Part shown: one piece after another, positions 30,616 through 47,832 of the stretch
How the letters are laid out: every line of letters begins with the position of its first letter
Numbering within the stretch: position 1 is the stretch's first letter
Assembly (NCBI GenBank): GCA_039821555.1
Contig: JBCBNX010000025.1
Location: 1-50,089 of the forward strand
From: Bacteroidota bacterium
GTDB taxonomy: Bacteria > Bacteroidota > Rhodothermia > Rhodothermales > Rubricoccaceae
Length of the DNA stretch: 50,089 bases
Direction: 5' to 3'
Notes under the pieces: generated by a model
Database searches by the model: none
Told to the model about the DNA's origin: nothing
What the model saw: the letters and a program-made list of their open reading frames with translations, nothing else
Position numbers and translations under genes: made by a program

Positions 30616-31263
30616 CTAGCGGGGGCGCTGACCGTTGGCCTTGCGAATGACGCGCGTATTAGAAGCCCGGCTACGCGGTGCACTGTCGCCCTGAGAGCCA
30701 TTGCTCGGGGCGCTACCGCGCTGCGAACCGTCCCCGTGCACACCACCGAACGGGTCTGCTGGGGGGCGCTCGTTGTGGGGGCCCTGGCGCGTCGTGCGCT
30801 GGGGCTCGGGGAGGTACTTCGCCGGGACCCGTGGGGGAGATGCGAACCGCCCGCGCTCGTCGAGCGCCACCCACTGCGCTGGCATCGAATAGAGGTAGCG
30901 GCCGATGCCCCACTGCACGGCGGCCCGCTTGAGCGCGCCGGATAGGCCACCCTTGACCGATTCGAACTCGGTGTTCTCGGCGCCGTCCCACTTGGTCACC
31001 CACTCTGGCGCGTTAGCTCCCTCGCGGTGCACGAGAATGGAGAGGCCGCACAGGACGCCCCCCTCGGGCCCCGGTGCGAATTCGTTCCGCCAGTTGCCTG
31101 GCCCGCACACCTCGTCCAGGCGGTCCTGGATGGCGCGACTCGTGAGGTAGGCCATCGCTAGACCTTTTTTGCGGTCACGCGTGGTCGCCCCGGGCTTCCA
31201 CTCAATGTCGTCGTTGGGAAAGGGGGCGCTGAGGCGGCGGAGATCGTCTGGAGAGACAGCCAT
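30616..31263 (-). CDS. Rad52/Rad22-family single-strand annealing protein (DdrA/Sak-like)
   Basis: ATG at 31263 gives MAVSPDDLRRLSAPFPNDDIEWKPGATTRDRKKGLAMAYLTSRAIQDRLDEVCGPGNWRNEF, which matches the conserved Rad52 N-terminal annealing domain. The C-terminal tail is Gly/Ser/Arg-rich and looks disordered. Confidence 0.7.
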   Translation of the reverse strand: MAVSPDDLRRLSAPFPNDDIEWKPGATTRDRKKGLAMAYLTSRAIQDRLDEVCGPGNWRNEFAPGPEGGVLCGLSILVHREGANAPEWVTKWDGAENTEFESVKGGLSGALKRAAVQWGIGRYLYSMPAQWVALDERGRFASPPRVPAKYLPEPQRTTRQGPHNERPPADPFGGVHGDGSQRGSAPSNGSQGDSAPRSRASNTRVIRKANGQRPR

Positions 31264-31579
31264 AGGACAAGCTGGGCACGTCGATGGAACAGGTACTCCA
31301 CCAAGGATCGCCCCATTGAGTGACACCACTCTGTCACTCAATGGGGCGTGCTCCTGTAGGCTCGTGTAATGTGAAGAAACGTTGGGGATGTTCAGTTTTT
31401 CGACGGGAAAATCGAAGAAGAAAGCGCTTTTTATTTAGATCCTGATGTTGCTCGCATAAATGAGGTGAAACGATATGGCTCAATGCCTTGAATTCCTAAG
31501 GGTGGCCTCCTATGTTTTATCCCGTCGCACCTGGTGCGATTGGTCTTCTAGCGTTCACCGGCGGTTCCGCCGGTGCGCC

Positions 31580-36190: not shown

Positions 36191-36835
36191 ATGCTGGAGT
36201 TTCTATCCTCGGGCCCGCTGCTGCCCCTCACGGTCCTCCTCGCCATCGTCGGGGTCTACTGGCTGTTCGTCATCCTGGGCGCGCTCGACCTCGACTTCCT
36301 CGACGTGGACTTCGACGCGACGGACGCGGACGTGGACCTCGACTTCGAAGTCGATGCGGATGTGGATACCGGACTCTCGGGGTGGCAGCAGGCGCTGTCG
36401 TTCCTGCACCTCGGCATCGTGCCGTTCATGGTCGTCTTCAGCGTGTTCGTGCTGAGCTGGTGGACGGCCGCCGCCATCGGGTTCTTCGTGCTCGGCCTCG
36501 GTGCGCTCGTCGGGCTAGGCGGCAGCGCTTTGCTGGCCATCCTCGCGACGAAGGTGCTCACATGGCCGCTCGCGGTCCTCTTCCGCAAGCTCAAAGCCGC
36601 AGAGGCTCCGGTGCAGATTATCGGGCGCGTCTGCACGGCGCTCACCGCCATCGACCACGAGCGGCTCGGGCAGGCCGAGCTCGCCACCGACGGCGCGCCG
36701 CTGCTGCTCACCGTCAAGACCACCCAGCCCGGCGAGCGGGTCGCGCGCGGAGAACGCGCCCTCGTGGTCGCCCGCAGCGACGACGGGCAGGTCTACCTCG
36801 TAGATCCCGTCGCCGTCCAGCAGGCCACGGTCTGA
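36191..36835 (+). CDS. NfeD/YqiJ-like membrane protein (flotillin-associated, C-terminal OB-fold)
   Basis: N-terminal TM helix, an unusual acidic D-rich segment (LDLDFLDVDFDATDADVDLDFEVDADVD) and two more TM helices. A C-terminal beta-rich OB-like domain (IGRVCTALTAIDHERLGQAELATDGAPLLLTVKT...ALVVARSDDGQVYLVDPV) follows. It sits immediately upstream of the flotillin gene, as in yqiJ-yqiK and nfeD-floT pairs. Confidence 0.6.
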   Translation: MLEFLSSGPLLPLTVLLAIVGVYWLFVILGALDLDFLDVDFDATDADVDLDFEVDADVDTGLSGWQQALSFLHLGIVPFMVVFSVFVLSWWTAAAIGFFVLGLGALVGLGGSALLAILATKVLTWPLAVLFRKLKAAEAPVQIIGRVCTALTAIDHERLGQAELATDGAPLLLTVKTTQPGERVARGERALVVARSDDGQVYLVDPVAVQQATV

Positions 36836-36838
36836 TCC

Positions 36839-39058
36839 TTGCGGCTCGCTGCCGCCCTCCAGTTTCAACGTTTTTCTGGCCCCACCCTCTCTGTCATGGA
36901 AGCATTCTATAACATCGCCGCGGTCGTTGTCGGCTTTGTCGCGCTTATATCCCTTGGGCTAATTGCCCTGGTCGCCAAGTTTTACAAAAAGGTCGAGCAA
37001 GGCCGTGCCCTCGTGCGCACCGGTGTCGGCGGCACGAAGGTCGCCTTCTCGGGGATGTACGTCTTCCCGGTGGTCCACCGCTCCGAGCTGATGGACATCT
37101 CGCTCAAGCGCGTCGAGATCTCGCGCACGGGCAAGAACGGCCTCATCTGCAAGGACAACATGCGCGCCGACATCCAGGTGGCCTTCTTCGTGAAGGTCAA
37201 CAAGGACGAGCAGAGCGTGCAGACCGTCGCCGAGTCCATTGGCACCGTGCGTGCCTCGGACCCGCAGGCGCTCATCGAGCTGTTCGACGCCAAGTTCTCG
37301 GAGGCGCTCAAGACGGTCGGCAAGAACTACGACTTCGTCGACCTCTACAACAGCCGCGAGACGTTCAAGGAGGACATCCTCAACGTGATCGGCACTGACC
37401 TGAGCGGCTACGCGCTCGAAGACGCGGCCATCGACTACCTGGAGCAGACGCCCGTCGAGACGCTCGACCCGGACAACATCCTCGACGCGGAGGGCATCAA
37501 GAAAATCACCGACCTGACGGCGCGGCAGGCCGTGCTCGCCAACGAGATCAACCGCGAGAAGGAGAAGACGCTCAAGAAGCAGGACGTGGAGGCCCGCGAG
37601 GCCATCCTCGAACTGGAACGCCAGCTTGCGGAAAAAGAGGCGAGCCAGCGCCGTGAAGTCGAGACCGTACAGGCGCGCGAGACTGCCGAGACGGAGCGCG
37701 TACGCCAGGAGGAGCGCCTCAAAGCTGAGCGCGCCCGCATCCAGACCGACGAGGAGGTCGAGGTTGCCGAGCAGAACAAGCAGCGGCAGGTGCTCGTCGC
37801 GGAGAAGAACCGCCTGCGCACTGATGCCGTCGAGACGGAGCGCGTGGAGAAGGACCGCCAGCTCGAAGCCACCGAGCGCGAGCGCGTGGTCGAGCTCGCC
37901 CGCATCGAGAAGGAGAAGGCGCTCGAAGAGGAGCGCAAGACGATCCAGACCGTGATCCGCGAGCGCGTGATGGTCGAGAAGTCGGTCGTCGAGGAGGAGG
38001 AAAAGATCAAGGACACCCGCGCCACCGCCGAGGCCGAGCGCACGAAGTCGGTCGCGCTGACGTATGCCGAGCAGCTCGCCGAAGAGGCGAAGGTGCAGGA
38101 GACGAAAGCCGCCGAGGCGAAGCGCCTCGCCGCCGTCGAGGCCGCGCAGCAGCGCGTCGTCGAGGCCGAGGCTGAGCAGGAGGCCGCCGAGAAGGAGGCC
38201 GCCGCTATGAAGACGCTCGCCGCCGCGCGCGCCGAGGAGGAAGCCACCGTGGGCCTCTCGGAGGTCCGCGTGATGGAGGCCCGCGCCGCCGCCGTCCGCG
38301 AGGAGGGCACCGCCGAGGCCGACGTGCTCAAGCTGAAAGCCAGCGCCGAGGCGGAGGCCATCCAGGCCAAAGCGCTCGCCGAGGCCGAGGGCAAGAAGGC
38401 CCTCGCCGATGCTACGGAGGCGCAGGGCTCCGCCGAAGCGGAGGTCATGAGCCGGAAGTACGCCGCCGAAGCCGACGGCATCCGCCAGAAGGCCGAGTCG
38501 ATGAAGGTGCTCGACGGCGTCGGCAAGGAGCACGAGGAGTTCAAGCTCCGCCTGGAGAAGGACAAGGAGGTCGAGCTGGCGCAGATCGCCGTCCAGAAGG
38601 ACATCGCGCTGGCGCAGGCCGAGGTGCTCCGCGCCGGCCTCGAAGCGGCCAACATCGACATCGTCGGTGGGGAGTCGATGTTCTTCGAGAAGATCGTCGG
38701 GGCGATCACGCAAGGCCGGTCGGTGGACCGCCTCGTGGACGGCTCGGACGTGCTCAGCGAGGTCAAGGAGGCGTTCCTCTACGGCGAGGGCGCGCTCGGC
38801 GGCGGTGCGCTCGGCGACGGCGCCGACGGCGGTGTCCCGATGCTGGGCGACGGGCTCATCGCCCGCGTGCGCGGCCTCGTGGCGCAGACTGGCCTGGGCA
38901 CGGACGACGTGAAGAACCTCACGCTCTCGGCGCTACTCGTGAAGCTGATGGCGCAGACCGAGGACGCCGCCGACGCGACGGCGCTAGAGCAGATGCTCCG
39001 CACCGTGCGCCAGCTCGGTCTCGGCGACCAGAAGGCCAGCACGCTCGGGCTGAAGTAG
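36839..39058 (+). CDS. flotillin-like SPFH/band-7 protein with a very long coiled-coil region (YqiK/FloT-like)
   Basis: N-terminal TM anchor plus SPFH domain (ALVRTGVGGTKVAFSGMYVFPVVHRSELMDISLKRVEISRTGKNGLICKDNMRADIQVAFFVKV). About 400 aa of E/A/R/K-rich heptad-like coiled coil follows. 739 aa. Confidence 0.85.
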   Translation: MRLAAALQFQRFSGPTLSVMEAFYNIAAVVVGFVALISLGLIALVAKFYKKVEQGRALVRTGVGGTKVAFSGMYVFPVVHRSELMDISLKRVEISRTGKNGLICKDNMRADIQVAFFVKVNKDEQSVQTVAESIGTVRASDPQALIELFDAKFSEALKTVGKNYDFVDLYNSRETFKEDILNVIGTDLSGYALEDAAIDYLEQTPVETLDPDNILDAEGIKKITDLTARQAVLANEINREKEKTLKKQDVEAREAILELERQLAEKEASQRREVETVQARETAETERVRQEERLKAERARIQTDEEVEVAEQNKQRQVLVAEKNRLRTDAVETERVEKDRQLEATERERVVELARIEKEKALEEERKTIQTVIRERVMVEKSVVEEEEKIKDTRATAEAERTKSVALTYAEQLAEEAKVQETKAAEAKRLAAVEAAQQRVVEAEAEQEAAEKEAAAMKTLAAARAEEEATVGLSEVRVMEARAAAVREEGTAEADVLKLKASAEAEAIQAKALAEAEGKKALADATEAQGSAEAEVMSRKYAAEADGIRQKAESMKVLDGVGKEHEEFKLRLEKDKEVELAQIAVQKDIALAQAEVLRAGLEAANIDIVGGESMFFEKIVGAITQGRSVDRLVDGSDVLSEVKEAFLYGEGALGGGALGDGADGGVPMLGDGLIARVRGLVAQTGLGTDDVKNLTLSALLVKLMAQTEDAADATALEQMLRTVRQLGLGDQKASTLGLK

Positions 39059-39285: not shown

Positions 39286-42200
39286 ATGGAACCGGCTCGC
39301 CCCTCCGCTCCCGACCTCGCGCCCGTCGCTGGCAACGACGTGCCGCCCAGCGGCGCGTCCGGCGACGGCGCCCCGGCTGGCACTGCGCCGAACGCGACGC
39401 CTGCGCTCGAAGGCGGCACGTACGAGTTGCTCCGCGACCGCCTCGCACAGCACGCCCGTACGCTCCAGACGCGCCTCCAGACGCTCGACGAGGCCCGCCG
39501 CGCCGTCTTCGGCAGCACCGACCTCGCGCTGATCGGCACGGCCGCGATCGCCACGCACCACAACGCCGTCGTGCGCGACCTCGTGGAGGTGCCCGGCCCC
39601 GACGGCCCGCGCCTGCTCGTCGGCTGCCACGTGCACCTCGGTCTGAAAACCGAGACGACGCTCGACGACGTGTTCGCGGCGTATGCCTTCGACGGCGACA
39701 CGGCGACCTACCGCGAGGCCCCGCTCGACGTGCTCGCCGACGAGCGCTTCGCGGAGGACTTCGCCAACCTCCATCGCTACTACAAGCAGGCGCGCTTTGC
39801 CCGCTTCGCCGAGCGCGGGCCGCACCTCTTCATGGTCTTCCAAGTCGGACAGCGCGCGGACGACATCAAGGTCTTCAAGTGGCTGCGCGGCGACGACGGG
39901 CTGCAGTACCTCGACAACCGCTCCGAGCACACCTTCGTCTACCCGACGCAGCAGGCCTTCCGCTGGCAGCGCACCACGCGCGACATGCACCGCGACGGCG
40001 CGCACCCGCACGTCTCCATCGAGGACCGCGTCTTCGTGGAGGCCGTCGGCGGCGACCTCACGGTGAAGGTGGAGGACAACACCGACAGCGGCCTCGGCGT
40101 CTACGCGGAGCCCGTCGACCACGCCGACCAAACACTCGACGACGCGGAGGTGCACTACGCCACCGCGGGGCCGCTTATCCTGATGCGCATTCGGCCCTAC
40201 CAGGAGGAGACGACGCGGCAGCTACTCTTCAACGAGAAGACGCAGGCCGTTCATCGCCTCGACGCGCTCGCACACGCGACGGTAGCGCTGCCCGAAGACC
40301 ACGGCATCGTCTACCCCGACGGCTTCGCGCTCGCAGCGGGCGGCGTCAAGCGCTTCGACGGCGTCCCGGCCGCCACCCGCTTCGAGCGGCAGATCGCCGC
40401 GCCCAACGGCGAGGACTTCCTCTTCGTTTTCCACGACGTCCAGACGGGCGAGTACGTCCTGCTGTCGTACAACCTCATCACGCAGGAGGTCGCCACGCCG
40501 GTCCGCTGCGGCGGCTACGCGCTGCGCCCCGACGGCGAACTCGTCTACGTGCGCCCCGAGCCCGAGCCGAGCAAGCACCACACGCTCCAGCGCTGGCGCT
40601 CGCCCTACCGCAGCCGCAACGGCGCCCCTCTTGCTGGCGAGGCACCCAGACAACAGGACGCGTACCTCTTCAAGGTGGGCAACAAGGACATCGTCCGCGC
40701 GCTCAGCGAGGGCTACGCGATCCTCAACCTCCTCGGCCGCGACGACGGCTACGTGGGCCTCTACGCCGACCTCGTCAAGGAGACGACGGGTCTGCTCGAC
40801 GCGACGTTCTGGCTCGACCACGAGGAGGCGGGCAACGTGGCCGAGGTGCTGCGCGGCATTCGCGAGACGGCGCAGCGAGCCCTCGCCGAGTTCGACAAGG
40901 TGCGCCGCCTCCGCCAGACGGCTCGGGAGCGCACGCAGGCCGCTGCGGCCGAGACGCAAGCGCTCCTCCAAACCGTCGAGCGGCGGACGTTCGAGTCAGT
41001 AGAGCAGTTTGTCGATGCGCTCGCAGAATTAAGAGCGGTGCGCGGGCGGCTGATCGCCCTGCGCGAGGTGCGCTACGCCGACGTGGCGCTCGCCGAGGCG
41101 CTCGAAACCGAGGCCGCCGAGGCGTCGGAGCGGCTGGCCCGCCGCATGGTCGAGTTCCTCCTCCGCGACGACGCCCTCGCGCCGTACGAGGCGCAGGTCG
41201 CCGAGGCCGCCGCGGCCATCGACGCGCTCGACACCGTCGCTGAGGCGCGCGGTGTGGCTGAGCGGTTCGACACCGCCGCCAGCGCGCTCGACCTGCTCAT
41301 CGAAACCGTCTCGAACCTCCAGATCGACGACGCGACGCAGACGACGCGCATCATCGACGCGGTCTCCGGGCTCTACGCGACGCTCAACGCCGAGCGCGCC
41401 CGCCTGAAGCGCCGCCGCGACCAGCTTGCCGAGACCGAGGGCGCGGCCGAGTTCGCCGCGCAGCTCAAGCTCCTCGAACAGGCCGTCACGAGCTACCTCG
41501 ACGTGGCCGAGACGCCCGAGGCGTGCGAGCAATACCTCACCCGCGCGATGGTGCAGGTGTCGGAATTGGAGAGCCGCTTCGCCGAGGCCGACCGCTTCAT
41601 CGAAGTGCTGTCCGAGCGCCGCGAGGAGGTCTACGCCGCGTTCGAGCAGAAGCGGCTCGCGCTCGTGGAGGCGCGCAGCCAGCGCACCGCCGCGCTCGAA
41701 CGCGCCGCCGAGCGCATCCTCGACGGCGTCCGCAGCCGCCTCGACCGCTTCGACACGGTCGAGGAGATCAACGGCTACCTCGCCGCCGACCTCATGGTGG
41801 CGAAGGTCCGCGACACCGTAGCCCAGCTCCGCGACCTCGGCGACGCGACCAAGGCCGACGGCCTCCAGACGGCGCTCAAGGCCGCACGCGAGCAAGCGAT
41901 CCGCCAGCTCAAGGACCGGAAAGAGCTGTTCGTCGACGGCCAGCCGATCCTGCGCCTCGGCACGCACCGCTTCGCCGTCAACACGCAGCCGCTCGACCTC
42001 ACAACGGTCCTCCGCGACGAGCGCCTCCACCTGCACCTCACTGGCACCGGCTTCTTCGAGCCGCTCGACGACCCCGCCATTGAGGCCGCGCGTTACCTCT
42101 GGACGCAGGAAGTCGTCTCCGAGACGGACGACGTCTACCGCGCGGAGTACCTCGCCTACCTCGTCTACCAGGCATCGCTCGTCGGGCAGTCGGAGATCCC

Positions 42201-44430
42201 GCCGCCCACGGCGCTACTCGCTGAGCCAGAGGACGACGAAGCACCTGATGCCGTGCTCGCCTCTGTACAGCGGTTCATGGCTCCGCGCTACGGCGAGGGC
42301 TACGTCAAGGGTGTGCACGACCACGACGCCGCGACGATCCTCCGCGCGCTGCTACGCCTCCACGCCGATGCCGGGCTGCTGCGCTATGGCCCCGCCGCCC
42401 GTGCTTGCGCGCTCGTCTGGTGGCACTGCTTCGCCGACGACGCGACGCGGACCCGCTTCGAGGCGCGGCTGCGCGGCCTCGGCACCGTCCAGCGGCTGTT
42501 TTCGAATGGCGAACACGATCTCGATGCCGCCACCGCCGCTCTCGCCATACCGCTCGTGGCGTTCGTCAACGACACCGGACTGTTCGAGGTCAGCATCGCG
42601 GAGCAAGCTGCGGCCTACCTCGCCCGCGAACTCGCGCAGGACGACCCGACCCGCTTCGTCGCCAGCCCCGAGGCTGTGACGTTGCTCGACGGCTTCGCCA
42701 AGGCGCTCGCCAAGCCAAAGGCAACGAAGGCGTTTGGCGACGCACTCGACCGTCTTATTGATGATCCTGCCGGCCAGGTCGCGCTCCTCCGCGATGCCCT
42801 TTCCACCTTTGCGAACCAGCAACACACGGCCTCAACGTTGAAAAGGAGTTCCCCTCCTGGACAGAGTCTTGCCCCCGCGCAGGCGGGGGAGGGGACAGGG
42901 GTGGTGGATCGAGCCGGGCATAAACCCGACAGGACTGACTCCGACCTCGTCGACGAAGCCGCCGCGATTCGCCTGGCCGATCTCCGCGAGAACGTGGATG
43001 TAGGCGCGACCGAGACGCGTGTCGAGTTGGCCGACCTGCGCGGGAGCCATGCGCGCGTGGACGATGGCACGTACCGCCTCGACTTCGCGGCCTTCCTCGA
43101 CCGGCTCGGCGCGTTCGCCAGGGAGCGCGTGCCCGCGTTCGCTGCGTTTGCCGCGCGCAAGCATGAGCGCATCCAGGCGCGGAAGGCCGAACTGCGCCTC
43201 GACGAACTCAAGCCGCGCGTCTTCTCGGGCTTCGTCCGCAACCGCCTCATCGACCGCGTCTTCCTCCCGCTCATCGGCGACAACCTCGCCAAGCAGCTCG
43301 GCACGGCGGGCGATACGACGCGCACGGACCGGCAAGGTCTGCTGCTGCTGATCTCGCCGCCGGGCTACGGCAAGACGACGCTCATGGAGTACCTCGCCGA
43401 CCGGCTGGGGCTCACGTTCGTCAAGATCAACGGCCCGGCCATCGGCCACGACGTGACGGCGCTCGACCCGGAGTCTGCACCCAACGCCGCCGCGCGCGAG
43501 GAGCTCGTCAAGCTCAACCTCGCCTTTGAGATTGGCGACAACCTGATGCTGTACGTCGACGACATCCAGCACTGCCACCCGGAGTTCTTGCAGAAGTTCA
43601 TCGCGCTCTGCGACGCCCAGCGGCGCGTCGAGGGCGTGTGGCGCGGGCAGCCGCGCACCTACGACCTGCGCGGCAAGAAGGTGGCCGTGGTGATGGCGGG
43701 CAACCCCTACACCGAGAGCGGCGCCCGCTTCCGCGTCCCGGATATGCTCGCCAACCGCGCCGACACCTATAACCTCGGCGACGTGATCGGCGAGACGGCG
43801 GACGCCTTCGCCAGCTCCTACCTCGAAAACGCGATGGGCGCCAACCCCGTCCTCGACGCCGTGGCGAGCCGCGCGCCCGACGACCTCCACGCGCTCGTCC
43901 AGGCTGCCGAGACCGACCGCCGCGACGGACTCGACCTCCAGGGCAACTATGCCCCCGACGAACTCGACGAGATCCTCGCCGTGCTGCGCCACCTGATCGC
44001 GCTGCGCGACGTGGTGCTGGGCGTCAACCAGGAGTACATCGCCAGCGCCGCGCAGAACGATGCCTACCGTACGCGCCCACCGTTCCTGCTCCAGGGCTCC
44101 TACCGCAACATGAACCGGCTCGCCGAGAAGGTCCTGCCCGCCATGACCGACGCCGAGCGCGACACGCTCGTGCGCAGCCACTACGAGCAGGAGGCGCAGC
44201 TTCTCACGAGCGGGGCCGAAGCCAACCTGCTGCGGCTCAAGGAACTGATGGGCTGGCTCACGCCCGACGAGGCCGCCCGCTGGGCCGAGATGCAGGCGAC
44301 GTTCCAGAAGAACCAGGCGTTCGCGGGCCTCGCCGACGGCGACCAAGTGGCGCAGGTGCTCGCGCAGCTTGCCGCCCTCACCGACGGCCTCGCCGCCATC
44401 CGCGATGTGCTGGCGCGCGGTGACGACTAG
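39286..44430 (+). CDS. giant (1714 aa) multidomain protein with a C-terminal MoxR/AAA_5-like AAA+ ATPase domain; function unknown
   Basis: Continuous ORF; ATG at 39286. Near residues 1340-1500: Walker A LLLISPPGYGKTTLMEYLADRLG, Walker B LMLYVDDIQHCHPEFLQKFIALCDAQRRV (MoxR-like DEINRA...-type), then VAVVMAGNPYTES. The central ~800 aa are strongly alpha-helical and A/L/E/R-rich. The N-terminal ~450 aa are of unknown fold. Confidence 0.8.
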   Translation: MEPARPSAPDLAPVAGNDVPPSGASGDGAPAGTAPNATPALEGGTYELLRDRLAQHARTLQTRLQTLDEARRAVFGSTDLALIGTAAIATHHNAVVRDLVEVPGPDGPRLLVGCHVHLGLKTETTLDDVFAAYAFDGDTATYREAPLDVLADERFAEDFANLHRYYKQARFARFAERGPHLFMVFQVGQRADDIKVFKWLRGDDGLQYLDNRSEHTFVYPTQQAFRWQRTTRDMHRDGAHPHVSIEDRVFVEAVGGDLTVKVEDNTDSGLGVYAEPVDHADQTLDDAEVHYATAGPLILMRIRPYQEETTRQLLFNEKTQAVHRLDALAHATVALPEDHGIVYPDGFALAAGGVKRFDGVPAATRFERQIAAPNGEDFLFVFHDVQTGEYVLLSYNLITQEVATPVRCGGYALRPDGELVYVRPEPEPSKHHTLQRWRSPYRSRNGAPLAGEAPRQQDAYLFKVGNKDIVRALSEGYAILNLLGRDDGYVGLYADLVKETTGLLDATFWLDHEEAGNVAEVLRGIRETAQRALAEFDKVRRLRQTARERTQAAAAETQALLQTVERRTFESVEQFVDALAELRAVRGRLIALREVRYADVALAEALETEAAEASERLARRMVEFLLRDDALAPYEAQVAEAAAAIDALDTVAEARGVAERFDTAASALDLLIETVSNLQIDDATQTTRIIDAVSGLYATLNAERARLKRRRDQLAETEGAAEFAAQLKLLEQAVTSYLDVAETPEACEQYLTRAMVQVSELESRFAEADRFIEVLSERREEVYAAFEQKRLALVEARSQRTAALERAAERILDGVRSRLDRFDTVEEINGYLAADLMVAKVRDTVAQLRDLGDATKADGLQTALKAAREQAIRQLKDRKELFVDGQPILRLGTHRFAVNTQPLDLTTVLRDERLHLHLTGTGFFEPLDDPAIEAARYLWTQEVVSETDDVYRAEYLAYLVYQASLVGQSEIPPPTALLAEPEDDEAPDAVLASVQRFMAPRYGEGYVKGVHDHDAATILRALLRLHADAGLLRYGPAARACALVWWHCFADDATRTRFEARLRGLGTVQRLFSNGEHDLDAATAALAIPLVAFVNDTGLFEVSIAEQAAAYLARELAQDDPTRFVASPEAVTLLDGFAKALAKPKATKAFGDALDRLIDDPAGQVALLRDALSTFANQQHTASTLKRSSPPGQSLAPAQAGEGTGVVDRAGHKPDRTDSDLVDEAAAIRLADLRENVDVGATETRVELADLRGSHARVDDGTYRLDFAAFLDRLGAFARERVPAFAAFAARKHERIQARKAELRLDELKPRVFSGFVRNRLIDRVFLPLIGDNLAKQLGTAGDTTRTDRQGLLLLISPPGYGKTTLMEYLADRLGLTFVKINGPAIGHDVTALDPESAPNAAAREELVKLNLAFEIGDNLMLYVDDIQHCHPEFLQKFIALCDAQRRVEGVWRGQPRTYDLRGKKVAVVMAGNPYTESGARFRVPDMLANRADTYNLGDVIGETADAFASSYLENAMGANPVLDAVASRAPDDLHALVQAAETDRRDGLDLQGNYAPDELDEILAVLRHLIALRDVVLGVNQEYIASAAQNDAYRTRPPFLLQGSYRNMNRLAEKVLPAMTDAERDTLVRSHYEQEAQLLTSGAEANLLRLKELMGWLTPDEAARWAEMQATFQKNQAFAGLADGDQVAQVLAQLAALTDGLAAIRDVLARGDD

Positions 44431-44437
44431 CGCACTC

Positions 44438-44929
44438 ATGGCGAAGACGCTTAACCAGATTGAAGGGCGCGGGCCTCAGCCTATGCCACCCGAGGTGAAG
44501 GGCCTGATAGCCAACGCTGAGCGGCTGATGGGCACACCTATCGATCAGTTTAGCGTGGGCGACCTGCGGCTCATGATCGGGCAGAACATGGGCACAGAAC
44601 ACCTGATGCCCAGAGCGCTCGGTGTGCTCGAATTGAATCCCCTCGTGTGCGGGACGTTCTTCCCTGGCGATCTGCTGAAGGCAACGTTCCGGCTCCCAGC
44701 AGTGTACTGGACGCAGCATCCGGCGCACCATGAGCGTGCGCTCGCCATCGCCCGCCAAGCACTAGACATCCTCGAAGCTCGCTGCGCCCGCTCGAAAGCG
44801 CGCTTCTATAAGCGGTACGGTACGCACCTCAACGAAGAGGAATGTTTGGATATCGACGAGCGTGACGTTAAGCAGTGGTGTCTGGATTTTCTCGCGAGCT
44901 ACGATGGGAGCGGCGTGGCAACCCGCTGA
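44438..44929 (+). CDS. small conserved-looking hypothetical protein, translationally coupled to the giant ATPase gene
   Basis: ATG at 44438, 8 nt after the TAG of the giant gene. 163 aa, MAKTLNQIEGRGPQPMPPEVKGLIANAERLMGTPIDQFSVGDLRLMIGQNMGTEHLMPRALGVLELNPLVCGTFFPGDLLKATF... I recognise no family. Confidence 0.6.
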   Translation: MAKTLNQIEGRGPQPMPPEVKGLIANAERLMGTPIDQFSVGDLRLMIGQNMGTEHLMPRALGVLELNPLVCGTFFPGDLLKATFRLPAVYWTQHPAHHERALAIARQALDILEARCARSKARFYKRYGTHLNEEECLDIDERDVKQWCLDFLASYDGSGVATR

Positions 44930-45501: not shown

Positions 45502-45523
45502 CGGCTCTTGCGTTTAGGCGAGC
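45502..45523. repeat. direct repeat, copy 2, right flank of the hicBA cassette, about 20 nt upstream of the relA/spoT start
   Basis: GGCTCTTGCGTTTAGGCGAGC; see copy 1. Confidence 0.75.
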
Positions 45524-45543
45524 CCGTTGCACCAGGTCCCGCT

Positions 45544-47832
45544 ATGATCCAGGCCTCCGCCCACCTCGACGCGCAGCTTCGCGAACTCAAAGTCGACGCG
45601 AAGTACCGGCGCGGGCTGCGGGTACTGATCGAGCACGCCCGGCGGCGGCTGCCGAGCGTGGACGAGCAGCTGCTCCGCCGCGCCTTCCAGGTGGCCTACT
45701 GGGCGCACCGAAACGACCGCCGCGCCGACGGCTCGCTCTACATCGCGCACCCGCTCGAAGTCGCCACCATCGCCGCGCGGGACATCGCCTTCGACGACGT
45801 GACCGTGGTCGCCGCGCTGCTGCACGACACCGTCGAGGACACCGACATCTCGCTCGACTTCTTGGAGGCTGAGTTTGGAGCCGAGCTCGCGCAGGTCGTG
45901 GACGGCGTCACCAAGATCGACCACGTCTTCGAGAGCAAAAAGCTAGGCCGCGACGAGAACGTGCGCAAGCTCATGCTCTCGATGGCGAGCGACATCCGTG
46001 TCATCCTGGTGAAGTTCGCCGACCGGCTGCACAACATGCGGACGCTAGAGAGCCTCCCGCAGGCGAAGCAACTCCGCATCGCTTCGGACACGCTCGCGCT
46101 CTTTGCGCCGTTGTCGCACCGCTTCGGCCTCAACGCCATCAAGACGGAGTTGGAGGACCTCTGCCTGAAATACATCGACCCGGAGCGCTACCAGCACATC
46201 ACGACGGGGCTGAAGGCCAACCGGCGGCAGCGCGAGACGTACCTCCGCCGCTTCATCGAGCCCGTCCAGAAGGAGCTCGAAGGCGCGGGTCTGACGTTCG
46301 AGATCACCGGGCGCCCGAAGTCGATCTACTCGATCTACCGGAAGATGAAGGCGCAGGATAAAGACCTCGACGAGATCTACGACCTGCTCGCCATTCGCAT
46401 CATCCTGGAGAGCGAAGGCCGCCAGGGCCGCGAGGATTGCTGGCGCGTCTACTCGATCCTCACGGACCTCTACCCGCCCATTCCCGAGCGCTTCCGCGAC
46501 TTTATCTCGCTGCCGAAGTCGAACGGCTACCAGAGCCTCCACACGACCGTCATCGGGCCGAAGGGGCGGCGCATCGAGATCCAGGTGCGCACGCAGGAGA
46601 TGCACGAGATCGCCGAGCGCGGCGTGGCGGCGCACTGGAAGTACAAGGAGAAGAACGCCGACGGCTCCCGGAACAGCCCGCGCGCCGACGAGCGCCTCGA
46701 CTCGCTCTACTCGTGGGTGCGCGACATGCTCGAAAACCCGCAGCCCGACGCGGCGAGCGACTTCGTGCAGGAGTTCTCGCTCAACCTCTACGCCGAGGAG
46801 ATCTACGTCTTCACGCCCGCTGGCGACCTGCTCACGCTCCCGCGCGGCGCTACGCCCGTCGACTTCGCCTACCAGGTGCACACCGAGGTCGGCAACCGCT
46901 GCATCGGCGCTAAGGTCAACGGCAAGATGGTCCCGCTTTCGCACAAGCTGGCCTCCGGCGACCAGGTTGAGATCCTCACGTCGAAGAAGCAGTCGCCCAA
47001 CCCAGACTGGGCGAACTTCGTGGTCACGACGAAGGCGAAGGCCCGCATCCGGCAGCACATCAACGAGAAGCGCCGCAAGGCCGTCGACCAGGGCCGCGCC
47101 GTGTTTGAGAAGCGCCTCGCGAAGGCGGGCGTCGAGATCGACCAGCAGGCCATCGCGCGCACAGCGGCGAAGCTGAAGTTTCCCGACTCGCAGCAGGTCT
47201 TCTACGAGATCGGCACCGGCGCGTACGACGCCGACACGTTTATCACAGCGCTGCGCCGCGGTGCCGAGGCAGCCCGGGTCGAAACCGAACAGGCTAACGC
47301 CGAGACCGCCGAGGCGCAGGCGCGCTACCTCGACCAGGAGGCCACGCGCGTCACGCGCCAGGCCCGCGAGGCCAACCTCCCCGCGCTCATCGTCGACGGC
47401 GAGCCGATGTCGGACCTCGCCACGCGCTACGCCAACTGCTGCAACCCGATCCCCGGCGACGAGGTGGTCGGGTTCGCGAGCAAGACGGGCGCCATCACGA
47501 TCCACCGCGGCACGTGCCGCAACGCGCTCCACCTGATGGCCGAGCAGCCCGAGCGCATCCTGCCCGTGGACTGGAGCCGCCAAAAGGATGCGCAGTTCAT
47601 CGTCGGCCTGCGCATCATCGGCGAGGACCGCGTCGGCATCGTGAGCGACCTCACCACGATGATCTCGAAGAACCAGCGCACCAACATCCGCTCGATCACG
47701 GTCGAGAGCGAGGACGGCATGTTCGAGGGCAACCTCGTGCTCTTCGTGAGCGACCTCAAGCACCTGCAGCGGCTGATGGACCGCATGCGACAGATCGACG
47801 GCATCTTCGGCGTCTATCGGTTTGAAGAGTAG
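45544..47832 (+). CDS. spoT: bifunctional (p)ppGpp synthetase/hydrolase, RelA/SpoT family
   Basis: HD hydrolase domain (HPLEVATIAARDIAFDDVTVVAALLHDTVEDT), synthetase domain (RPKSIYSIYRKM...DLLAIRIIL...GYQSLHTTV), then TGS and C-terminal ACT. Start at MIQASAHLD. Confidence 0.9.
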   Translation: MIQASAHLDAQLRELKVDAKYRRGLRVLIEHARRRLPSVDEQLLRRAFQVAYWAHRNDRRADGSLYIAHPLEVATIAARDIAFDDVTVVAALLHDTVEDTDISLDFLEAEFGAELAQVVDGVTKIDHVFESKKLGRDENVRKLMLSMASDIRVILVKFADRLHNMRTLESLPQAKQLRIASDTLALFAPLSHRFGLNAIKTELEDLCLKYIDPERYQHITTGLKANRRQRETYLRRFIEPVQKELEGAGLTFEITGRPKSIYSIYRKMKAQDKDLDEIYDLLAIRIILESEGRQGREDCWRVYSILTDLYPPIPERFRDFISLPKSNGYQSLHTTVIGPKGRRIEIQVRTQEMHEIAERGVAAHWKYKEKNADGSRNSPRADERLDSLYSWVRDMLENPQPDAASDFVQEFSLNLYAEEIYVFTPAGDLLTLPRGATPVDFAYQVHTEVGNRCIGAKVNGKMVPLSHKLASGDQVEILTSKKQSPNPDWANFVVTTKAKARIRQHINEKRRKAVDQGRAVFEKRLAKAGVEIDQQAIARTAAKLKFPDSQQVFYEIGTGAYDADTFITALRRGAEAARVETEQANAETAEAQARYLDQEATRVTRQAREANLPALIVDGEPMSDLATRYANCCNPIPGDEVVGFASKTGAITIHRGTCRNALHLMAEQPERILPVDWSRQKDAQFIVGLRIIGEDRVGIVSDLTTMISKNQRTNIRSITVESEDGMFEGNLVLFVSDLKHLQRLMDRMRQIDGIFGVYRFEE

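Follow-up and report, generated by a model that had tools for sequence, protein, structure and literature searches.

Two-gene flotillin operons, such as E. coli yqiJK, B. subtilis yuaF-floT and S. oneidensis SO1376-SO1377, stop after the flotillin gene and contain no ATPase (PMC1468410), and giant SPFH2 flotillins have likewise been mentioned with no ATPase partner (Hinderhofer et al. 2009). Elsewhere, SPFH cages work with AAA+ machines, as HflK/C does with FtsH (cited in PMC13086221 and PMC13220708), the S. aureus FloA-NfeD pair is an ATP-independent holdase for unfolded proteins (PMC11222466), and a B. subtilis SPFH protein connects PspA to the membrane (PMC8581546). The closest described system is the CesT/Tir-PspA operon of Ravi et al. 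(2024; mSystems 9:e00847-23; PMC11237479), which includes a YqiJ/YuaF protein, a Band-7+coiled-coil+flotillin protein and a beta-propeller+coiled-coil+AAA+ ATPase. Here we examine a stretch of 50,089 nucleotides from a Bacteroidota bacterium of the Rubricoccaceae (assembly GCA_039821555.1, contig JBCBNX010000025.1, positions 1 to 50,089; hereafter the window), in which a YqiJ-like gene and a flotillin gene are followed by a giant gene encoding a protein of 1714 amino acids (aa) that ends in an AAA+ ATPase domain.

The window trio has the same gene order and the same three architectures as the operon of Ravi et al. (2024), from which it differs in the CesT-PspA pair, present there and not found here. 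That study explicitly mentions abbreviated operons without PspA, and its Table S3 lists a Dokdonia donghaensis neighbourhood (ANH61663.1) in exactly this order. Since the trio is present and no PspA or CesT gene was found among the scanned ORFs of the window, the window, as judged from sequence, corresponds to the abbreviated version of this PspA-linked operon. Ravi et al. (2024) assign no AAA+ clade and report neither motif analysis nor experiments; the present analysis adds the MoxR-type fold and the DD Walker B motif described below.

The trio opens with homologues of YqiJ and YqiK, as found in the two-gene flotillin operons, but in those operons the third gene is lacking and the flotillin is shorter (553 aa, against ~720 aa in the window). 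By functional analogy, the trio also resembles HflK/C-FtsH and prohibitin-m-AAA, in which a band-7/SPFH scaffold is paired genetically or physically with a membrane AAA+ enzyme. Unlike those enzymes, the window ATPase has no detected protease domain or transmembrane segment, and it is MoxR-like rather than a member of the classical AAA+ clade. HflK/C, moreover, faces the periplasm, whereas the SPFH protein of the window is of the cytoplasmic flotillin type.

The three-gene module and its conservation

The genes of the trio are as follows.
36191..36835, plus strand: first gene of the trio, a YqiJ/NfeD-like small membrane protein of 214 aa (hhalign, Pfam and hydrophobic windows)
36896..39058, plus strand: YqiK-type flotillin (SPFH/band-7) of ~720 aa (hhalign against E. 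coli YqiK)
39286..44430, plus strand: giant gene, an ATG-to-stop open reading frame (ORF) of 1714 aa plus stop, of the DUF3686-DUF7902-AAA+ family named 'DNA repair ATPase' at NCBI

A flotillin gene lies directly 5' of the ATPase gene in every locus that has upstream DNA, and a YqiJ-like gene precedes the flotillin in nearly all of them. The order seen in the window is kept in 19 Bacteroidota/Verrucomicrobiota loci, in Sulfidibacter (Acidobacteriota), in a Planctomycetaceae genome, in a Calditrichia metagenome-assembled genome (MAG; Calditrichota) and in a Clostridiaceae MAG, as well as on the P. fluorescens SBW25 plasmid pQBR103, on a Streptomyces plasmid and in three distant members at 28-35% identity. 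The flotillin diverges alongside the ATPase, homologues at ~50% identity being paired with ATPases at ~50%, and those at 27-41% with ATPases at 28-35%. No terminator-like site was found between the three genes of the window, and both partners have membrane segments whereas the giant ATPase has none. Because the gene order is invariant across phyla, a functional link between the ATPase and the adjacent flotillin is strongly supported by these comparisons.

In DNA of ~68% G+C, spurious long ORFs are abundant on both strands. The ORF at 39286..44430 is nevertheless, on sequence grounds, a genuine gene and not a chance high-GC ORF, because it has a strong DUF3686 match, more than 2500 homologues and an identical protein at NCBI (P0001, named 'MAG: DNA repair ATPase [Bacteroidota bacterium]'). 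Pfam DUF3686 (PF12458) covers aa 60-507 with its full profile (558.4 bits against a cut-off of 25, E 1e-167), DUF7902 (PF25472) covers aa 629-712 (91.8 bits against a cut-off of 26, E 3e-26), and the best 120 of the >2500 matching database proteins align collinearly, at 48-57% identity across 97-98% of the length. The protein thus carries both Pfam domains of the family together with full-length collinearity and the C-terminal SPPGYGKT/DDIQH/GNPY/QGSYR motifs, and is structurally no different from other DUF3686/DUF7902 proteins. The first-pass annotation had proposed a 1714-aa ORF here, which is borne out; the 'unknown N-domain' that it assigned to the protein is in fact DUF3686, predicted to be all-beta. 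Hydrophobicity and composition analysis found no hydrophobic segment in the giant protein, which is therefore predicted to be cytoplasmic.

Both the architecture and the operon of this widespread bacterial family were on record before, through Pfam, NCBI annotation and a single comparative-genomics paper of 2024. Among 1.84 billion representatives, the DUF3686 N-domain was found only at the N-terminus of ~1600-1900-aa proteins (641 clusters at 50% identity, E <1e-3), and shorter hits look like fragments. The architecture that the first-pass annotation considered unusual is so for MoxR proteins, but is the norm within this named and published family. The same annotation had conceded that membership of a known family, for example a characterised DNA-repair ATPase, would count against it; this holds nominally, as a name for which no characterisation was found. 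The literature searched contained no mention of PF12458 or DUF3686, no experiment tied to the name 'DNA repair ATPase' and no experimental work on this ATPase. Members occur in culturable hosts, among them Proteus, Vibrio, Streptomyces and Hymenobacter, and on pQBR103.

The adjacent gene was called a flotillin from the outset, and comparison with E. coli YqiK (NC_000913) upholds that call: a 30-sequence profile (A4) aligned by hhalign over 401 columns with probability 99.96, E 4.5e-39 and 33% identity. Its 739-aa ORF opens at TTG 36839, and the ATG at 36896 is the likely start. Composition and hydrophobicity fit a protein anchored in the membrane at its N-terminus, in which the SPFH domain is followed by an E/A-rich coiled coil of ~370 aa and then by a conserved, G/L-rich domain at the C-terminus; homologues are named 'flotillin family protein' or YqiK in databases. 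The SPFH domain of the window flotillin was missed by Pfam (including Band_7), NCBIfam, PDB phmmer and a PDB profile search; in this subfamily it was detected only by the profile-profile comparison with YqiK. Because Pfam Band_7 and the PDB sequence and profile searches miss this domain, domain-based surveys may undercount the subfamily.

The first gene of the trio encodes a probable YqiJ homologue with a predicted multi-pass membrane N-terminus. Its product has hydrophobic segments near the N-terminus, contains a D-rich acidic loop and ends in a soluble part; a 14-sequence profile (A5) aligned by hhalign with E. coli YqiJ over 181 columns (probability 92.3, E 5.6e-7). The Pfam match to YqiJ_N is weak (E 0.007).

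Genes matching CesT_Tir_1 (Pfam E ~1e-51 to 1e-56) and PspA_IM30 (E ~1e-40 to 1e-43) stand ahead of the trio in four loci (L013, L018, L023 and L025), whose ATPases are full-length homologues at 42-46% identity to the window protein. A cluster of PspA/yjf type precedes the trio on pQBR103. Genes of membrane-stress or tellurite type recur beside the trio in scattered lineages: TelA lies nearby in L034 (13502-14608) and L035 (11001-12221), TerD in L038 (16131-16664) and PspC in L032 (4996-5196). A rhomboid gene is found near the trio in L036 (2192-2857) and L037 (427-981).

Two copies of trio proteins carry eukaryotic labels. One is a near-full-length ATPase in a EukProt entry (P0031, 49% identity), and the other is a near-full-length flotillin labelled 'Laminaria digitata' on a 5.4-kb contig (P0371). 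Both are probably bacterial contamination of eukaryotic assemblies.

Domain architecture of the giant protein

AlphaFold2 (AF2) models were made in two pieces from 75-sequence alignments, one of aa 41-1180 (m226e89d1c42c; mean predicted local distance difference test (pLDDT) 84.0) and one of aa 1235-1714 (mbcfef0fa33bc; mean pLDDT 82.3). The features of the chain, from its N-terminus, are listed here.
aa 1-40: Ala/Pro-rich disordered head
aa 43-75: helix of 33 aa preceding the all-beta domain
39526..40599, plus strand, aa 81-438: all-beta N-terminal domain, inside DUF3686 (AF2 pLDDT >90)
40663..41925, plus strand, aa 460-880: long-helix rod region with helices of 20-58 residues (DSSP of the AF2 model, pLDDT ~80-90)
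41170-41421, plus strand, aa 629-712: DUF7902, within the rod region (Pfam)
41947..42822, plus strand: small beta unit (aa 888-926, low confidence), then conserved helical bundle (aa 953-1179; AF2 model)
42826..43005, plus strand, aa ~1181-1240: low-complexity variable linker (composition; no majority residue in the family consensus)
aa 1245-1338: beta-hairpin and two helices (helices aa 1267-1338) just ahead of the AAA+ core (AF2 model)
43339..43914, plus strand, aa 1352-1543: AAA+ core and lid (AF2 model pLDDT 82; Pfam AAA_5 31 bits)
43357-43380, plus strand: Walker A SPPGYGKTT with K1363 (PPGYGKTT at aa 1358-1365)
43549-43572, plus strand, aa 1422-1429: Walker B LYVDDIQH with D1425/D1426
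aa 1445-1448: QRRV
aa 1447-1460: predicted pre-sensor-1 beta-hairpin
43693-43713, plus strand: sensor 1 N1473 (MAGNPYT at aa 1470-1476)
43750-43764, plus strand: putative Arg finger R1491
43954..44421, plus strand, aa 1557-1712: C-terminal helical extension with an invariant QGSYR motif (AF2 model)
44092-44112, plus strand: QGSYR with R1607, putative sensor 2 (pattern count 185/186)

In the model, the all-beta domain has ~28 strands grouped in fours, and it is probably a 6-7-bladed beta-propeller. Foldseek searches of the PDB with this domain returned Elp1, Ski8, CyRPA, oligopeptidase propellers, WDR91 and sialidase with probabilities of 0.99-1.00 and E values of 7e-6 to 1e-3, at TM-scores of <=0.35. 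It is also labelled 'Betapropeller' by Ravi et al. (2024; PMC11237479).

The region between the propeller-like domain and the ATPase had been described as a helical stalk of ~800 aa. It is mostly helical, but the models show it to be segmented, being broken by the beta unit and by the linker. In the helical bundle stretch, conserved residues include a VHDHD motif (alignment A3), and no Pfam match was found for the beta unit and bundle. The linker is, by its composition, probably disordered; only its aa 1235-1240 fall in the second model, whose residues 1-3 have pLDDT <50.

The first-pass annotation had further held the helical region to be similar in character to the coiled coil of the adjacent flotillin, and had taken this as a sign of physical coupling. 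This resemblance was rejected: BLASTP between the two gave E 0.13 over 16 aa, and their compositions differ, the flotillin coiled coil being E/A/K-rich whereas the rods of the giant protein are A/L/E/R-rich (A+L+E+R is 53% of aa 460-880). A coupling to the flotillin is supported by gene order across phyla, and the argument from helical likeness fails.

All four motifs quoted in the first-pass annotation (PPGYGKTT, LYVDDIQH, QRRV and MAGNPYT) are present at the C-terminal end of the chain, and a check of Walker A and B across orthologues found them conserved. In 75 aligned homologues, K1363, D1425-D1426, N1473, R1491 and R1607 are invariant, and a pattern count places the AAA+ motifs in 180-185 of 186 full-length members, including representatives at ~30% identity; the apparent Walker B exceptions carry the same DDIQH motif on visual inspection. 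The assignment of R1607 as sensor 2 is putative and follows from its position and the G-S-x-R pattern. Because K1363, N1473, R1491 and R1607 are invariant and the fold is nearest to CbbQ and NorQ, the AAA+ module looks functional. Its Walker B motif is DD, never the canonical DE, in every member inspected, again down to ~30% identity, so that the catalytic Glu is replaced by Asp throughout the family.

The label 'MoxR-like' is right at the level of the fold, but several features set the protein apart from this group. Comparison of the model with solved structures places the fold nearest to the MoxR remodelling ATPases CbbQ and NorQ, at ~15% identity, and the Pfam model AAA_5 (of the dynein/MoxR/McrB type) matches the whole ATPase domain above its cut-off. 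The predicted hairpin (model residues 213-218 and 221-226) lies just before the sensor-1 strand, with no strands between beta2 and alpha2. With MoxR ATPases such as CbbQ, NorQ and RavA, the protein shares the AAA_5-type profile and a GNPxxE...PDxLxxR pattern, and it may share the pre-sensor-1 hairpin predicted by the model. It differs from them in being 5-6 times longer, with an N-terminal extension of ~1340 aa, and in having DD for DE in Walker B. The MoxR-specific Pfam model AAA_3 (PF07726) gave no match, aa 1300-1714 yielding only AAA_5, AAA_22, AAA and RuvB_N at E values up to 10, and no VWA/MIDAS partner was found among the scanned ORFs of the window or the called genes of related loci. 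When PDB sequences were searched with the giant protein, matches were confined to the Walker A region of p97-like proteins and were uninformative for clade.

Proposed role and competing explanations

On balance, and with modest confidence, we favour the view that the product of the giant gene is the ATPase subunit of a conserved membrane module of three genes, and that this subunit would remodel the flotillin assembly or the proteins that it holds under stress. The flotillin and its YqiJ partner would assemble into a large SPFH oligomer, a scaffold on the cytoplasmic side of the inner membrane. The MoxR-like AAA+ domain of the soluble giant protein would bring its subunits together, probably into a hexamer, and its long helical arms and N-terminal propeller-like domains would reach and dock on the flotillin/YqiJ scaffold. 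Under envelope or membrane stress, ATP binding and hydrolysis would then drive the remodelling of the flotillin assembly or of the proteins bound to it. From the observed domain anatomy, AAA+ clade and motif conservation, and from the obligatory synteny with flotillin/YqiJ and occasional synteny with CesT-PspA, we infer how the proteins would bind one another, in what oligomeric state, on which substrate and in which stress response they would act.

Several observations weigh against this proposal. No PspA_IM30 or CesT match was found among the scanned window ORFs, and no tblastn match in the window. The DD Walker B shared by all members, where DE is canonical, may mean slow hydrolysis or a domain that serves as a nucleotide switch. 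The flotillin, in turn, does not need the ATPase, because flotillins occur without it: in Cloacimonetes L033 (7235-11042), a YqiJ-like gene and a 58%-identical long flotillin are followed by a DUF547 gene in the ATPase's place, and E. coli yqiJK consists of two genes with no ATPase.

A more specific version of the proposal, which we put forward only tentatively, is that the ATPase is specialised in remodelling bacterial flotillin cages at the expense of ATP, as a 'Vps4 for flotillin'. Six propeller-tipped helical arms extending from a MoxR-like ring would then grip the flotillin dome and open, disassemble or load it when the membrane is under stress.

Alternatively, the ATPase could act in a Vps4-like manner on PspA/ESCRT-III-like polymers, the flotillin serving as a membrane platform only. 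The CesT-PspA pair directly upstream of the trio in four loci and the PspA cluster upstream on pQBR103 are consistent with such a role, and AAA+ partners of PspA/Snf7 are discussed by Ravi et al. (2024; PMC11237479). We consider it unlikely, however, as PspA is adjacent in a minority of loci and the flotillin in all, the AAA+ domain belongs to the MoxR/AAA_5 clade rather than the classical Vps4 clade, and Pfam scans detected no MIT-like domain.

It is somewhat more doubtful that the AAA+ domain is a nucleotide-binding assembly switch in a mainly structural, coat- or spectrin-like protein beneath flotillin domains. The DD Walker B of all members would fit such a switch, but the invariance of sensor 1, of the Arg finger and of sensor 2 is what one expects of a hydrolysing enzyme. 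Asp at the catalytic Walker B position can, moreover, support hydrolysis in some AAA+ proteins, which counts against a pure switch.

There is little to commend a third alternative, in which the trio would be a mobile module for stress or anti-phage defence and would work by perturbing the membrane (abortive infection). Its presence on megaplasmids (pQBR103 and the Streptomyces and Deinococcus plasmids), its patchy distribution over the 641 clusters and the TelA, TerD and CdiI-like genes near it in some loci would be in keeping with mobility or defence. PADLOC (PADLOC-DB v2), however, gave only noise-level matches to the three proteins (E 0.013-0.018), no match was found among 50,697 phage records, and no effector is recognisable. 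The window neighbours are housekeeping genes, and for defence genes it would be unusual to keep ~50% identity over 1700 aa from one phylum to another.

Least supported, and hardly credible, is a DNA-repair ATPase as in the database names (PF12458 'ATPase involved in DNA repair'; NCBI 'DNA repair ATPase'), since these labels, for which the searched literature holds no experiment, are its only direct support, the DNA-related genes nearby being incidental (in the window, a Rad52/22-family gene at a distance of 8 kb; in L032, a RecQ gene close to the trio), whereas Pfam scans detected no DNA-binding or nuclease domain, DNA-related neighbours vary between loci and the sole conserved neighbours are membrane proteins.

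Neighbouring genes and implications

Other genes of the window that were annotated in detail are as follows.
30616-31341, minus strand: Rad52/Rad22-family protein (Pfam E 7.6e-16)
44369-44929, plus strand: CdiI_3-like 'CDI immunity protein' ORF (Pfam E 8e-20), overlapping the last 62 nt of the giant gene
45508-47832, plus strand: full-length RelA/SpoT (HD, RelA_SpoT, TGS and ACT domains), ~1 kb 3' of the giant gene

These neighbours, like the TonB-dependent receptor and other genes upstream of the trio, are not conserved with it. The CdiI_3 ORF is kept only in the near-identical MAG contigs L001, L005 and L017, and no CdiA-like toxin gene was seen near it. RelA/SpoT is linked to the giant gene in the closest relatives only. 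A contig binned as Myxococcota (L027, 1-1589) matches the 3' end of the giant gene and RelA/SpoT at 94-99% protein identity (tblastn), which suggests a binning conflict between MAGs of the same sample series. A Rad52/Rad22 gene is unusual in a bacterial chromosome, such proteins being commoner among phage single-strand annealing proteins.

The architecture and the operon were already known. What is new here is the MoxR-type fold, the invariant DD Walker B, the synteny with flotillin even at 28-35% identity and the presence of the family in culturable hosts. The name 'DNA repair ATPase', which is being propagated in genome annotations, is probably misleading, and flagging it has practical value. 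For the debated role of bacterial flotillins, an ATPase that is always encoded beside one flotillin subfamily offers an experimental handle; the new details give concrete mutants and constructs for testing, and the system sits in tractable bacteria. The pairing predicts active remodelling of the scaffold and connects flotillins to the PspA envelope-stress machinery. If true, a 'Vps4 for flotillin' would be the first regulator known to act on an SPFH scaffold in an energy-dependent manner without proteolysis.

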